From positions 1,248,001-1,312,000 of the forward strand of contig OZ252149.1 of the NCBI GenBank assembly GCA_965248755.1: a stretch of 64,000 nucleotides of DNA, given 5' to 3'. Position 1 is the first letter of the stretch, and every line of letters starts with the position of its first letter. Source of the DNA: Candidatus Latescibacterota bacterium (GTDB lineage Bacteria; Latescibacterota; CBDEFO01). The position numbers are program-made. Of the stretch, positions 30,001-39,000 are shown one piece after another.

Positions 30001-33000
30001 GGTAGAAAGATTGATCATGCTAAGGCCGTTTTCAAAAAAGAATATCCCGCTGTTTTCAATCACCTAAAGCCACATAAGACAAAACTCATAAATCGGGATG
30101 ATCAGGGACAGTACTATTGGGAACTTCGATCCTGCGCGTACTACGAAGAATTTGAACGCACCAAGATTGTATATAACGAAACATCAAAAGAGCTTCATGC
30201 CCTGTTAGATGGCAACGGGTTACATATCAACAAGACAGGCTTCATCATTTTGTCCGAAGATGCCAAATTTCTGCTTGGAATTATAAATTCGCGGTTGATG
30301 GACTACCTCTATCGGTGCGAGTTTCCATCCTGGGGTGATCCGTGGCAGGGTGGTAGAATACAGTTTCGTGGCGACAGAATGGGGAAAATCCCCGTAGCTA
30401 TGGCCACCCCAAAACAGCAAATGGAAATCGAAACGCTTGTGGATAGAATTCTGGAACTGAAAAGAAAAACAATCGAAGCAGATGTCACCACCCTTGAAGC
30501 GGAGATTGACCAGATGGTCTATCAACTCTACGGTCTGACCAAGGAGGAGATGCGGATTGTGAAGGGAGAGAAGAAGTAAACTCACAAAAAGGGAATAAAA
30601 TGTTTTTATCAGAACTTAAGATATGGAACTTTAGAAAATACGGCTCAGGCGAGGACGATGCTCCAGGGTTATATCTAGAGCTAAACAGAGGCCTAAATTT
30701 ACTTGTTGGTGAAAATGATTCAGGTAAAACAGCAATAATTGACGCGATAAAATACGTTCTACAAACACAAAGCCATGATAATCAGAAGTTAGAAGAAGAA
30801 GACTTTTTTCTACTACCGGGGGTAGAACCGACAGATGCAAATAGAGCAAAATCGTTTAAGATAGAATGTATATTTCGCGGTTTTCATGTTGAAAATAATG
30901 AAGCGGCTAATTTCATAGAATGGCTTGGTATCGAAAAGAATGGAAACGGTCATGACCAGTATTTTCTCAAAGTTATCCTGAATGCTGAACGGAAGGATAG
31001 AAAAACTACTTATGACATAAACGCTGGTCCTGATGACGAAGGAACTCAACTTGATGGAGCAGCAAGGGATTTTCTAAGAGTAACCTACCTGAAGCCACTA
31101 AGGGATGCGGAAAGAGAACTTATTCCAGGAAGAAGCTCCCGATTAGCTCAAATCCTAAAAAGCCATGAGGCTTTTTCTTCAGTTCCAGAGGCGGAACATC
31201 CAATTACCAAAATTGCTAAGAGTGCGAATAAACAAATCGAAGGTTTCTTCCGAGGGAAAGGTGAAGACGATAATGATATTTCAGACCAGTCTGAAAAAAA
31301 ATTGCTGTCAGATATAAATGAATATTTGAAAGAGTTCTTCACAGAAAAAGAAATTAACAAAATCGCTAAATTCACGATTTCCGGTCAAGGCTTGTCGGGT
31401 ATTTTAGAGAAGCTTATTCTTGATTTGGCTGAAGGAAATTCGGGCTTGGGTTCTTATAACCGGCTATATGTGGCTACAGAATTACTTCTCTTAAAGCGCA
31501 CTAACTATTACGGCTTGAAACTGTCATTGATTGAAGAAGTTGAGGCTCATCTACATCCACAAGCGCAATTGAGATTAATCGAGTATCTACGAGATGAAAT
31601 AGCGGAAAAATCTGCTGTTCAATTAATAATGACAACTCATAGCCCTAACTTGGCTTCAAAAGTTAAACTTGATAATCTTATAATTTGTAAGGGTGACAAA
31701 GCTTTCCCTATGGGAAGTGATATTACTGAATTGGAAAAAGGAGATTATCTATTTTTGGAGCGTTTCTTAGATGCTACAAAGGCTAATTTATTCTTTGCAC
31801 AGGGAGTTATTTTAGTTGAGGGCTATGCAGAAGAGATTTTGATTCCGGTTATAGCAGATATTCTTGGCAAGCCGTTTACAAAATATGGTGTATCGATTGT
31901 GAATGTTCAAAGCACTGCTTTCCTGAGGTATTCAAGAATTTTCAAAAGAAAATCGAGAGAAGGAATGGATGTTAAAGTAGCTGTGGTAACCGATAACGAC
32001 ATTAAACCTGGTTCAGGACTTACTGAAAAGCAGATTAGAGATAAGAGAACAGAGAAAGAGGCAAAATATAATGGACAAGGAATTAAGACCTTCATTTCAC
32101 CAGATTGGACTTTGGAATACGATATTGCTTTAAGCGGACTTAAGAAAGAGTTTTATTCTGCCTTGCTTCGGGCAGAGAAAATTAAAAATAGTGATACTAA
32201 CGGTTTGACATGTGACAAAATCACTGAAGTAAAAGAAAAGGTCGAGACTGCCTTTGCCTCCTGGACTATAGAGAAAAAAGCAGATAGAGAAATTGCAAAA
32301 GCAATTTACGAAGGTTACATACTTCGTAAAGAGATTTCTAAGCCAATCGTTGCTCAGTGCTTTGCCTCATTACTAAAAGAATGTGTAGGAATGAAAGAAC
32401 AGATTGAGGTTGACGAAAAATTGAAATATCTCGTGGATGCTATTAAATATGTTACGGAATGACAAATGCGAATAATCATTACCAATGACGATATCATACC
32501 GCTCCCCTTGACAGAGCGACAAATATTTCGCAAATTGGGGTTTGAGAAGGGAGGTCAAGGTGTCGAGCCCCGAAGTGAAAGATGGTAAGCGCTGGACGGC
32601 GACCCGTAAGGGAGAGATTGTGTTGGCTCTTTTGAGAGGAGCAGATCTATCTGAGGTGTGTCGTAAGAATGGAATTAGCCAGTCGCAGGCGTATGCTTGG
32701 CGTGATAGTTTCTTAGAAGGGGGCCAGGAGAGTCTGAAGTCTCGGCGTGGTCGCAAGGATCCGAAGGAGCGAGAGGTTAGCCGGTTGGAGCGCAAGGTAG
32801 GGCAGTTGACGCTCCAGTTGGAGATACTCGAAGAGGTAGCCCGTCTAAAAAAAACGAAGCGGTTGCCTTGAGTGGGCGGTTTTTGGGTCGAGGCTATTCC
32901 CGCAAGGTGGTAGCTTTGGCTTTGGGTTTGCATCGTTCGACTCTGTATAGGTTTAGGGATAGAGGTGTCAGTTCTTCTGTTAAAGAGCCTGTGATAGATG

Positions 33001-36000: not shown

Positions 36001-39000
36001 GTCTCACTTTGCGCTCTGACAACGGCTCCATCTTTTTGTCTCGGACCTATTTGGCAAGTACCGAATATTGGGACATTCGTCAAGAATATATTCCGAGCGG
36101 AAAGGCCGATTGGAACGGGGTCATAGAACGTTTTTTCAGGACCCTCAAGCAGGAGTGTGTGTGGCTTCACAATTTCAAGTCCTTTGAACAAGCTGAGAAG
36201 ATCATATCTCAGTGGATCGATAATTACAACAAGAACTGGCTTCATTCATCTCTGGGATACAAGACCCCGGAAGAGTGGAGAAAACAATTTTATCTGCTAC
36301 CCCAAGTTGCTTAATTGATGTCGCTTTTCTGGGGGGCAGTACAATCTATAAATTACGTTTCTATTAGTAGTTCCATTTCAGCAAATCGTATTACCGATGA
36401 CTGGAAAATCCGATCGTGGACAAACGTACGGTATAGTAAACAAACCTTTGCGATAAACGACGAAAAGATATCCAGCATAGATAGGAATTATTATTTTTCG
36501 AGCACCATCGTAAAAAGTCTAACCAACCATTGGTCAGCCGGATTTTCCGGAACGGCTTCTTCTTCGACTTTCAGTAATACGGGTTTAGAAGTAGTAGTGG
36601 CGCCAGCATTCGAGTATAATCTTTTCCCATACTCCGAATCCACGCGAAGAGAGCTGCGTTTTCTATACCGCATTAATTACAATGCATTTCGCTATGTGGA
36701 GGAAACCATTTTTCAAAAAAGATCAGAGAAACTGTTTAGCGAGGAGTTGTCTGTGACCCTCAAAACCACACAGCTCTGGGGCTCAGCTACATTCAATTTA
36801 AAAGGCTCCCACTTCCTTCACGATTTCAGGAAGAATCGCTTGGTGCTATTTGGTGGATTGCAATTTCGCATGTTCAAGGGGTTTTCCTTGAATCTATATG
36901 GAAATATTTCAAGAATTCGAGATCAATTGTCCCTACGCAAGGGCGAGGCCAGCGCTGAAGAAGTTTTATTGCGACGTCGTGAACTTGCTACTTCTTACAG
37001 TTATTACACGTCAATCGGTCTAAGGTACACCTTCGGCTCAATTTATAGAAATATTGTTAACCCCCGTTTTGGAGGATAGCGATTGTTTAATTGAGCAATC
37101 ACTGAGTAGAAGTAACAAACTATGAAACCTTTTAAGCTAGGACTAATCGGCTGTAGCATCGCGGCCAAGGATCTTCATTGGCCAGCTCTGAATAAATTGC
37201 AAGACAAATTCGAGATTACGGTTGTGTGCAACCGGAGCGAACCGAAGGCCGCAGAGTTTGCTCACATGGTGGGCGACCTTCCGCACGTGCTCGACTACAG
37301 AGAGCTCTTAGACCGTCAGGTAGGACTCTATAGATTCCGTAGCCCTTTTCCCAAAGCTCACAAAGTATTGAATAGATATTCCGATAAACAAGGATTTGGA
37401 GCACTGATTACACAGTATATTTTTAGTTCACGCTAAAGATAACCCAATATGTAGGCCCTACCACTTATTTTTCGGATCATCTAATACACAGCCCGTCTTT
37501 CTGACGGGCTGTCTTTTCTTGGGTCATTTTCGAACTGAGTTTTCTTAGCCCTGCAAAGTATATCACAAAATACTTGTGTCGGGTAAAGGCACATGGTATC
37601 CACCTTTGATAAAGATAGAGAGAAGAGAGTCGAGAATCAAGACAGGGAAGTCAAAAAGTTGAGGATTGAGGTTTTCTGTGGGTTGGTGTTGGGTGGTTAT
37701 TTGTAAAGGGGTTTTGAAGTCTTTATAGCTATTATGTCTTTGGGTATTGAACAACCATTGATAGGTTTGGAGTTTCCGGCAGAGGTTGGCACGGTTGGTA
37801 ATCTTGACGGTGTCGTAGAATTCGTATTCGATTAGGCCGTGGGCGCGTTCTACATCGGATTGGTATGTAGTAGCCCCTGGTGGGATGCGTTTATGTTCTA
37901 TGCCTCTTTGTTGGATGAGGTCGGTAAAGAGGGTCTTTTTGAGGGCATCCTTTGTATTGACGAATTCTGTTCCGTTGTCGGTCTGGATCTTTCGTGGATA
38001 GACCTTGTGGTCTTCCAGGTGTTGGAGTAATGCTTCGGCCAAGATGCAGGAGTTGATCAGGCTCTGTTCGTCTGCCAGGCTTACGAAGAGGCCGCCTGTC
38101 TTGATATCTCTGGCAGTATACTCAAACATAGGGAGTTGGGCACCTGTTTTGTAGTGTTGTTTCAGGTAGTTGGGGATATCGCACAGATGTTTGACATCGA
38201 TCTGGATATATTCAAAAGGGCGTAGTTTCTTTTTCCACTGGCACACAAGTTTCTTTCTCCTCCATTTTCGCCTGCGTTTCTTTATGAGATTGTGTTTTTT
38301 CCAGATAGCATAGGCAGTCTGTTTGGAGGGGATTTGATCAGTTGGAACATTTTGTTTTTGGAGAAAGCCCAATAGATAGGGATATCCCAAAGAAGGATGG
38401 GTCTGTCGGAACTTTACGATGAGCTTTCTGATCTCCTCCGGTAACAAACAGTGAGGGTTTATGGGTGCTTTCGTATGATTTTCTAGACTCTTCAAGGATC
38501 GGTCTTCAAGATAACGTTTCAGCCATTTTCTTATACTCTTGCGTGTTGTATTAAAAGCCCTTGCAGCATACGAGACACCGTATTGTTGAGCAGTCTGAAC
38601 CATCTTGATACGAAGATCAACAGGATTACGATTAAGAACAAGAACATCACTATAAGTGATAGCATTCTCCATGGTATCTACCCTCCTTTTTTCAGTCCTC
38701 ACCTAAATATAGACAAAATTATCCCATAAGGGTGGATACCATGTGTCTTTACTCTTCTATCACAAAATACTTGACTGTTGCTTGTGATAGTGGTATTTTT
38801 ATCTGGAACAAATCAGCATTAGAACTACCGAATACCAGAAAGCTCATTCTACCAGGTACGATAACTCAGATGAAACCGGCAAATTCATCGCCCTTTTCCC
38901 TTAAACCTTCTTGCCTTGTGTCTGAACAACCTTTTCAACTCCAATAATTCCTGTTCATTGAATATTCTGAAATTACTTTGGGGCTCTCTTCTAGGCTTTG

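Follow-up and report, generated by a model that had tools for sequence, protein, structure and literature searches.

The window, a 64,000-nucleotide stretch of a Candidatus Latescibacterota chromosome, carries a Gabija locus whose second gene, gajB, is interrupted by two insertion sequences (IS) of the IS3 family. The features of the locus, in window positions, are the following.

27355..30579, plus strand: type IIG restriction-modification gene (PADLOC REase_MTase_IIG, 1223.8 bits; Pfam Eco57I, N6_Mtase)
30600..32462, plus strand: gajA, intact, 620 aa (PADLOC GajA, 719.8 bits, model positions 1-620 of 622)
32466..32494, plus strand: 5' portion of the native gajB, its first 29 nt including the ATG (nine codons, MRIIITNDD, and 2 nt more), from sequence and translation
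32495..33760, plus strand: IS3A, IS3 family, 1266 bp, flanked by the 4-bp duplication ATAT; left arm of a likely compound transposon
32542-32871, plus strand: orfA of IS3A (Pfam HTH_28, HTH_Tnp_1)
32868-33731, plus strand: orfB of IS3A (Pfam rve, rve_3, HTH_21)
33761..35055, plus strand: the passenger gajB', positions 1-1295 of a 1902-bp repeat unit, U (PADLOC GajB, 460 bits, model positions 10-454 of 647; genome copy depth 9-12)
35056..36343, plus strand: IS3B, 1288 bp, 91% identical to IS3A, orfB broken by frameshifts, located at U1295
36344..37570, no strand assigned: single-copy island DNA, not gajB (copy depth 1)
37571..38760, minus strand: a further IS, ~10 copies (depth 9-10), with a 379-aa ORF at 37563-38702

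The restriction-modification gene lies next to Gabija on its upstream side and belongs with it to one horizontally acquired module; the order of this gene, gajA and gajB recurs in the MAG loci L021 and L022, and the sister genome (G001) lacks the module and has no Gabija. The survey's finding of an intact gajA was borne out over the full length of the protein, and the window gene is the single full GajA match in the genome. As in relatives with a GajB 70-76% identical, gajB begins 3 nt after gajA, at 32466, and its N-terminus is identical to that of the L021 GajB, MRIIITNDDISWAES. After nine codons the gene gives way to IS3A at 32495, the last 4 nt of the 5' piece (ATAT) being the left copy of the IS target duplication, and GajB homology restarts exactly at 33761. 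The gene thus adjoins an IS3 right end and is cut by a second IS3, as reported before: IS3A splits it after codon 9 and IS3B lies at 35056-36343. As gajA and the first nine codons of gajB are arranged here as in the native loci of relatives, the window appears to be the origin of the gajB' unit.

The window copy of IS3B has no target duplication, and the remaining part of gajB is missing to its right, together with a short IS3 relic (mini-IS3) that forms the right arm of the unit; the donor therefore has no right arm today. In their place lies the island DNA at 36344..37570, with a 254-aa ORF (36315-37079) matching no family. This DNA gave no PADLOC or Pfam match and resembles neither G001 nor the DNA downstream of gajB in relatives; it is the mark of a deletion or rearrangement adjoining IS3B. 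The 379-aa ORF of the further IS had only weak Pfam matches (HTH_28, rve_3 and rve), and at least 8 copies of this element occur in G001 at 90-97% identity.

Elements of the IS3 family typically produce a short target duplication of 3-5 bp and have terminal inverted repeats ending 5'-TG...CA-3'. IS3A has the orfA and orfB of the family, overlapping by 4 nt in different frames, and both IS3A and IS3B produce 4-bp duplications, within the family range. The right end of IS3A reads ...GTACA and its left end CATACC rather than TG, with the exception of one copy in locus D that starts TGTACC. A 4-bp duplication flanks 34 of the 50 full-length IS3A copies (at least 98% identity) and is absent from 14, the chance of a 4-mer match being 0.0039 per flank pair. 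The 69 IS3 copies described previously do exist as matches of at least 1200 bp, but only 46 are identical; four lie between 98 and <100%, and of the 19 below 98%, 16 are ~91% identical and of the IS3B type. Fifteen IS3B copies share 99.8-100% identity, 13 with 4-bp duplications. The type II-A retron reverse transcriptase gene is indeed cut by an IS3, although by IS3B and not, as had been stated, by the same IS3; it shares this element with the second cut in gajB.

We then searched the genome by blastn with window positions 33761-35055. In agreement with the survey, the search returned 19 further pieces, 99.76-100% identical to the query, and seven of these start with its first base, immediately at an IS3A right end. 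That query represented only the truncated gajB piece of the window, and elsewhere the repeat continues past the gajB stop. Its full extent, defined at other loci, is U, which runs from gajB nt 26 to ~35 bp beyond the stop. Altogether 25 U pieces (24 beyond the window) amount to 19,801 bp, or 10.4 gene-equivalents, and because they carry just 3 mismatches, the spread of gajB' would be recent. The further loci number seven instead of eight, as the pieces at 2.71 and 2.72 Mb form one locus. The copies are broken by IS3A, IS3B and an IS1380-type element, so that the earlier picture of a gene both amplified and shredded stands.

At other loci the presumably autonomous IS3A and U are followed by 55 bp of further native downstream DNA and by mini-IS3, an internally deleted element of 420 bp that retains its own left and right inverted repeats; the whole (1266 + 1902 + 55 + 420 bp) measures 3643 bp and has its passenger between two IS arms with terminal inverted repeats. 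Mini-IS3 lies ~90 bp past the gajB stop and consists of an IS3-like left end, a transposase pseudogene with 88% protein identity to the C-terminus of the IS3A OrfB, and an IS3-type right end. All 14 of its copies in the genome share the same left flank and none was found without the gajB-side spacer, while their right flanks vary; its right inverted repeat is the constant distal boundary of the mobile unit. The spacer belongs to a stretch 87% identical over 165 bp to the native gajB flank of L021, the homology ending exactly at the mini-IS3 left end.

These boundaries bear on the earlier proposal that an IS overran its right end. In one-ended transposition of the ISEcp1 type a chance surrogate end is used and the cargo varies in length. 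A read-through of this kind, as with ISEcp1 or IS1247, in which the IS3A right end is skipped for a chance downstream IRR-like sequence, would account for several junctions that involve the right end alone, and for the nine IS3A right ends directly followed by U position 1. The latter indicate that the IS3A end is bypassed when the unit moves, so that this part of the proposal holds, as does gajB being the cargo; bypassing its own right end and carrying along the adjacent downstream gene is indeed a likeness to ISEcp1. The far end, on the other hand, is a true IS3 right end, that of a relic with a pseudogene and its own left end, and none of the 14 copies departs from it, which fixes the unit length instead of giving a variable distal boundary. 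Homology to the native flank stops at the mini-IS3 left end, so the far end is no fortuitous IRR-like sequence of native origin. The constant distal arm contradicts read-through, which we regard as very unlikely.

Next, we examined the outer flanks. Whole units are bounded by the 4-bp duplication typical of the IS: CTTT at locus B, AAAC at locus F, TGTT at site T (halves today in loci C and E) and CTAA at site V (halves today in loci D and C). Sites T and V were reassembled from halves in different loci, and V was found by comparing several orphan flanks, which raises a multiple-testing concern; when rejoined, V restores a 560-codon open frame over the junction, whose left part is a large serine recombinase. 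Direct matching succeeded for 4 of the 10 present-day outer-flank pairs examined, and among the seven present-day gajB loci it gives a duplication at just two (B and F). A 1745-bp derivative without gajB has moved twice in all, to 786134-787878 (duplication ATCC) and into U (duplication CTTA). Four of these sites (B, F, T and that of the 786-kb derivative) are uninterrupted and empty in G001, where their two flanks overlap by 4 bp; V lies in DNA absent from G001 and has no sister control. These duplications and empty sites argue for compound transposition with the IS3A left end and the mini-IS3 right end as outer ends. We thus consider it likely that the 3643-bp assembly of IS3A, gajB', 55 bp and mini-IS3 is a compound transposon that copied gajB' around the chromosome and was later broken and recombined. 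The survey's view that gajB DNA travels with IS3 as cargo is supported.

Recombination among the copies is clearly at work. Halves of the single ancestral sites S, T and V are now split between loci, a single IS3A insertion at U1655-1658 has one half in locus B and the other in locus D, and the 14 IS3A copies without a duplication point the same way. All of this could suggest that gajB spread solely by homologous recombination between the many identical IS3A copies (circles that were excised and re-integrated at other IS3A copies, inversions and duplications), with debris of nested insertions and no cargo transposition. Integration into a resident IS3A, however, would leave IS3A at both ends, and recombination cannot bring the mini-IS3 right end up to a newly made 4-bp duplication where the sister genome is uninterrupted, which is the situation at B, F, T and the 786-kb derivative. 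Recombination is a second layer of the history of these loci; as the sole mechanism it is contradicted by the empty sites with 4-bp overlaps and is unlikely. Flank swapping between copies has shuffled today's seven loci, which go back to at least four or five insertions, with an exchange of halves afterwards.

Loci B, C and G have a tandem and palindromic structure in the assembly, a kind of arrangement that assemblers get wrong, so identical repeats might have been misplaced and the extra gajB copies be unreal. In Logan contigs from three runs of one sample, possibly the sample behind the assembly itself, the U contig reached word depths of 17.6, 19.8 and 7 against 3.3, 3.26 and 2.5 for the gajA contig, i.e., 2.8 to 6 times higher for U, although word depth should not be read as copy number. 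One Logan contig spans the gajB 5' end into IS3A, and another, of 1957 bp, links the end of IS3A to the spacer across U. Moreover, misassembly would not yield exact 4-bp duplications matching single-copy empty sites in another genome. An artefact is therefore extremely unlikely.

Some junctions fit compound transposition less simply. The mini-IS3 right end is joined to U at internal positions 650, 561 (two loci) and 890 and at the 1902 end, five junctions that have no left-end counterpart; for a sixth, at 531, the IS3A left-end junction at U533 of locus C is only a tentative partner. The tandem mini-IS3/U junctions could be natural products of the "sloppy" one-ended strand transfer proposed for IS3-family elements (10.1101/2023.06.07.543989). 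Site S, formed by the left flanks of loci E and D (with the duplication ATAG; G001 has the empty site), shows an IS3A left end at each boundary, and one of the two begins TG and not CA; the simple model does not predict this. The left flanks of locus G and of 464 adjoin in G001 with an overlap of only 1 bp.

With regard to function, the Gabija scores here are 720 bits for GajA and 635 for GajB, the latter from a copy at 4.06 Mb covering model positions 18-645. Compared with the Gabija of relatives, gajB at the locus is interrupted twice and lacks its 3' part, leaving the encoded system incomplete. Across the genome gajA is intact and every gajB copy broken, none having a usable start codon, Walker A and the stop on one unbroken stretch. 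As no copy is both startable and full-length, Gabija is probably dead in this genome. One may ask if gajB' was amplified under selection, expressed from IS3A or IS3B and, for example, serving or titrating the intact GajA in trans. The IS3A-U junction does form an open frame that fuses 62 IS-derived codons to GajB from residue 10 onward, and the 4.06-Mb copy covers most of the model. Nevertheless, U is uninterrupted behind IS3A in no copy, and in the 4.06-Mb copy the Walker A motif GSGKT precedes the first ATG, GTG or TTG. The IS3A right end showed no promoter-like site facing outward, and the recurrent IS insertions in all copies speak against purifying selection. Selected amplification is thus very unlikely. 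An IS-driven helicase that helped the element to spread (e.g., by aiding copy-out replication or blunting GajA), that is, an IS recruiting a defence helicase, is equally improbable. The scattered gajB' copies show no sign of any function.

For the likely compound transposon we propose the following course, whose main steps are shown by the loci themselves. The module of type IIG restriction-modification gene, gajA and gajB, missing from the sister, was acquired. Mini-IS3 lay ~90 bp beyond the stop codon of gajB, and an IS3A insertion behind nt 29 of this gene duplicated ATAT. The IS3A left end and the mini-IS3 right end were used as a pair, and the whole unit inserted at new sites with the usual 4-bp duplication, presumably by the copy-out-paste-in route of the family. 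The IS3A OrfAB transposase would have acted in trans on ends 9-14% diverged, which is supported by the spread of IS3B despite its frameshifted orfB. Copies were then hit by IS3A, IS3B and IS1380-type insertions; an IS3A insertion at U1899-1902 gave rise to the 1745-bp derivative, itself mobile, and homologous recombination among identical copies exchanged flanks through chromosomal inversions. The window donor probably lost the gajB 3' part and mini-IS3 by a deletion adjoining IS3B. In this course gajB' would be a hitch-hiker without function and Gabija inactive.

Finally, we compared the unit with known systems. MITEs and other non-autonomous IS derivatives are mobilised in trans. Like them, mini-IS3 and IS3B lack a working transposase, keep their inverted repeats and are apparently served by the IS3A enzyme; unlike them, mini-IS3 acts only as the right arm of a larger unit. 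A compound transposon from a copy-out-paste-in IS is ISApl1-mcr-1-ISApl1 (Tn6330; PMC5821093; 10.1101/2023.06.07.543989). Both systems place two direct-orientation IS arms around a passenger gene, use the outer ends, lie as a whole unit within the IS's own target duplication and later have their arms lost or broken. Here, in contrast, the two arms differ, one being a full IS3A and the other an internally deleted relative of 420 bp, only ~86% identical to it; the cargo is a defence helicase gene truncated at its 5' end and not a selectable resistance gene, and the spread took place inside one chromosome, to 10 gene-equivalents.

The case reveals no new mechanism and is clear but classical. It is an unusually complete natural record of the birth, spread and decay of a compound transposon in one chromosome, in which the donor site, two unequal arms, target duplications and the sister's empty sites are readable and the cargo-less derivative and later inversions can be traced. 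It also documents how an IS burst knocked out Gabija and a type II-A retron, two defence systems of an uncultured bacterium, with a frameshifted IS variant and a mini-IS apparently mobilised in trans.

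The Gabija locus of the window opens as a Gabija locus should, with an intact gajA (as the survey's finding had described), and is broken further on by two insertion sequences: IS3A, an IS3-family element, and its variant IS3B.

Features of the Gabija locus (window positions)
27355-30579: type IIG restriction-modification (RM) gene, upstream of gajA
30600-32462: gajA, full length (PADLOC GajA 719.8 bits, model positions 1-620 of 622)
32495-33760: IS3A, 1266 bp, HTH OrfA and rve-type OrfB in overlapping frames
33761-35055: gajB remainder (PADLOC GajB 460 bits, model positions 10-454 of 647)
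35056-36343: IS3B, 1288 bp, 91% identical to IS3A, without target duplication
36344-37570: single-copy non-gajB DNA, right of IS3B

Pfam assigned AAA_15 and OLD-like TOPRIM domains to GajA. The gajB ATG lies at 32466, 3 nt past the gajA stop, and opens nine codons (MRIIITNDD); GajB homology restarts exactly at 33761, directly after IS3A. ATAT stands on either side of this IS3A copy, and the repeat that starts at 32495 occurs 71-89 times in the genome. Relatives show the same gene order, type IIG RM, gajA (620 aa), gajB (633-638 aa), and the same 3-nt gap; their GajB proteins begin MRIIITNDDISWAES... or MQIIITNDNISWAES... As the window retains gajA and those first nine gajB codons, IS3A must have inserted into gajB here, and the sequence marks the window as the donor site of the gajB unit. 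For the IS3B copy at 35056 we compared the flanks with those of the only other IS3B lacking a duplication (4034612), sought as its recombination partner. The two have no flank 4-mers in common, so we infer a deletion next to the window copy. A tblastx comparison of 36344-39350 with the relatives' Gabija loci detected no homology.

The sister genome G001, the only other one of the genus, has neither gajA nor gajB, and its approximately 14 IS3 copies reach only 90-94% identity. From window position 18000 to ~39350 we obtained IS matches to G001 only and no long syntenic match; synteny picks up again near 39350. Because long synteny is missing over this interval, we place the RM-Gabija module on an island, which appears to span at least 21 kb with the RM and Gabija genes and to have its left boundary before 18000. 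The RM-gajA-gajB module is also found in two loci from different phyla (L021 and L022), with RM proteins ~50% identical. GajB shares 70-76% identity with its counterparts in L021-L023 (MAGs of Neomarinimicrobiota, Bacteroidota and Latescibacterota), and with L021 the DNA at the gajB 3' end is up to 87% identical. The sequence comparison speaks for the module having been transferred horizontally as a whole, and recently.

Searching the genome by blastn with 33761-35055 returned 19 other pieces (99.76-100% identity), seven of which start with query base 1 immediately behind an IS3A right end; the claim that gajB pieces lie elsewhere, some starting at an IS3 right end, thereby held. A search with the GajB model found 24 gajB pieces, many spanning the C-terminal third that is missing from the window, and the copy at 4064194-4066038 holds a 631-codon open frame that matches model positions 17-645. 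The real repeat unit exceeds the stretch originally noted. When we tiled the loci with reference elements, one order recurred: IS3A (1266 bp), a gajB-derived unit U (1902 bp, from gajB nt 26 to ~35 bp beyond the stop), 144 bp and 331 bp, the last resembling an IS3 right end. The final 475 bp consist of a 55-bp spacer and a 420-bp element, mini-IS3, that has IS3-type left (CATACCGTTCCCC...) and right (...GCAGTACA) ends, an internal deletion and a transposase pseudogene containing stop codons (matching the OrfB C-terminus at 70 of 80 residues). Over 165 bp, the end of U and the spacer are 87% identical to the sequence that follows gajB in L021. The alignment stops exactly at the mini-IS3 left end, and on account of it we regard the spacer as native Gabija flank. 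The ancestral right flank of mini-IS3 was not found when the genome was searched with L021 gajB-downstream DNA (blastn, tblastx).

This anatomy bears on the mechanism proposed by the survey's finding, in which an IS3 overran its right end and moved gajB as cargo. The same 55-bp spacer stands left of mini-IS3 in 14/14 copies (in one it is broken by an IS1380-type element) and the right flanks differ, so that the far end of the cargo is fixed and the gajB unit is no overrun of the ISEcp1 kind. Other internally deleted or partial IS3 relics, 70-90% identical to IS3A, lie at C1:897322-897863, 4070543-4071085 and 1736903-1737614 and at window positions 54097-54234 and 57896-58192, and similar ones occur in the sister genome; from the relics in both genomes, mini-IS3 derivatives would therefore be a long-standing feature of the genus.

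The insertion sites of the proposed 3643-bp compound transposon (IS3A, U, spacer, mini-IS3) were then read against G001. Sites T and V, like site S below, are ancestral insertion sites rebuilt from halves lying in different loci.

Insertions of the unit (contig positions)
1570111-1582572: locus B, duplication CTTT; the two flanks join in G001 contig 8, overlapping by 4 bp
3655516-3660450: locus F, duplication AAAC; the two flanks join in G001 contig 6, overlapping by 4 bp
1645311 onward (locus C, IS3A-side flank) and 2719408 onward (locus E, mini-IS3-side flank): site T, duplication TGTT; halves meet at G001:C8:1726007-1726010
Locus D (IS3A-side flank) and locus C (mini-IS3-side flank): site V, duplication CTAA; no G001 sequence

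Beside locus F, one separate IS3A and one separate IS3B insertion also resolve on the same G001 stretch. Subtracting the unit from site V restores a 560-codon open frame whose first 397 codons encode a large serine recombinase (Resolvase, Recombinase, Zn_ribbon_recom). This gene (C1:2440140-2441332 joined with 1635693-1636183; ~560 codons; DNA absent from G001) was split by the gajB unit, and its two parts are now 0.8 Mb apart. An IS3A insertion at U1899-1902 (duplication AAGA, in locus A) produced a 1745-bp derivative made of IS3A, AAGA, the spacer and mini-IS3, without gajB. This derivative has moved to 786134-787878, where ATCC is duplicated and G001 has the site empty, and into another U copy at U1381-1384, with the duplication CTTA. 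Homologous recombination alone was considered as the source of these copies; it offers no way to bring a mini-IS3 right end next to a newly made 4-bp duplication at a previously empty site. Judged by its junctions, the unit works as, and qualifies as, a putative compound transposon of a copy-out-paste-in IS.

Copies of the unit have since been shredded and shuffled. U amounts to 25 pieces and 19,801 bp (10.4 equivalents), with 3 mismatches in total.

Insertions within U (positions in U)
U25-28, U319-322, U879-882, U1182-1185: IS3B, each with a 4-bp duplication
U1295: IS3B of the window, without duplication
U1130-1133: IS3A, the same insertion in three pieces (twice locus B, once locus E)
U1655-1658: IS3A, two halves now in loci B and D
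U1899-1902: IS3A
U1121-1125: IS1380-type element (DDE_Tnp_1_4)

The two sides of sites S, T and V each lie in different loci and in opposite orientation, which shows that recombination between copies caused inversions. Locus A sits inside a 257/513-bp tandem-repeat region, where a pair of GGAC 4-mers suggests an insertion into an older IS3A followed by inversion. The array around it (C1:853340-859035 and 865322-865835; 80-95% identity), which several IS3 copies interrupt, is probably a repeat-protein gene.

Some junctions fall outside the simple model. Site S (duplication ATAG) is bounded by two IS3A left ends; one of the bounding copies, the locus D IS3A (C1:2434660-2435923), begins TGTACC instead of CATACC, is otherwise identical, and at this outer tip reads like a right end. 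In G001 the left flank of locus G lies next to that of the derivative at 464002, the two overlapping by just 1 bp. The right flanks of D, G and 464 had no match in G001, which left no empty site to read for loci G and 464. Mini-IS3 right ends are also joined to internal U positions 650, 531, 561 (two loci) and 890 and to an inverted U1902 end, and locus B holds tandem arrays of mini-IS3, U from some internal position to 1902, spacer and mini-IS3. A candidate partner for the 531 junction is found in locus C, where an IS3A left end joins U533; the rest are unpaired. Nested insertions that recombination has trimmed may account for these junctions; alternatively, they may stem from circles formed by one-ended ("sloppy") strand transfer, a process discussed for IS3-family elements (10.1101/2023.06.07.543989), that re-integrated by homology.

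The genome contains 69 IS3 matches of at least 1200 bp. The survey's finding had the number right and their identity wrong: 46 match the window copy at 100%, 4 at 98 to <100% and 19 at less, 16 of these being of the IS3B type (~91% identical to IS3A). Among the 50 IS3A copies at ≥98% identity, 34 show a 4-bp duplication, one a 5-bp and one a 2-bp duplication, and 14 none; with this base composition, two 4-mers would match by chance with a probability of 0.0039. Frameshifts spread the orfB of IS3B over three frames, yet 15 copies (window 35056-36343 and C1:3656712-3657999 included) are 99.8-100% identical, and 13 of the 15 have 4-bp duplications. IS3B resembles a non-autonomous element whose mobilisation in trans was recent and presumably due to the IS3A transposase. 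A promoter scan of the IS3A right end, a weak test, gave no outward-facing match. A run labelled as another organism (X20) yielded a 1266-bp contig 100% identical to IS3A; its coverage of the examined stretch was confined to the IS3A part, with no gajA or gajB DNA. This contig raises the possibility that IS3A was recently acquired or shared.

Logan contigs, assembled from three runs of one sample that may be the assembly's own source, cover the stretch: one bridges the gajB 5' end into IS3A, and another, of 1957 bp, leads from the end of IS3A across U into the spacer. Word depth, which does not equal copy number, was 3.3, 3.26 and 2.5 for the gajA contig, 17.6, 19.8 and 7 for the U contig, and ~70-290 for IS3 pieces.

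Gabija activity needs both gajA and gajB. The Walker A motif of GajB (ACPGSGKT) lies ~45 residues into the protein, and no copy of U stands uninterrupted behind IS3A. In the 4.06-Mb copy, IS3B precedes at U25, and the first ATG/GTG/TTG comes after Walker A, leaving a 588-aa ORF. With two breaks and a truncation in the gajB next to gajA, Gabija most likely does not work here. A type II-A retron lies at C1:3730290-3732285 (positions 2291-4285 of locus L026), with an NDT effector (PADLOC NDT_II-A, 224 bits) upstream of the reverse transcriptase (RT_II-A model positions 4-234 of 309, 300 bits), and IS3B starts ~20 bp past the RVT_1 match. An IS3 does cut this gene, as had been reported, and the element is IS3B rather than the window's IS3A; the retron is a second defence system struck by the same IS family.

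Among the titles and abstract openings that our literature searches listed, we found no description of an IS carrying gajB. A known compound transposon analogue is Tn6330 (PMC5821093). Three things are unusual about the gajB unit: the arms are unequal, one being a full IS and the other a mini-IS; the defence gene that it carries as cargo is beheaded; and its history can be read unusually well.
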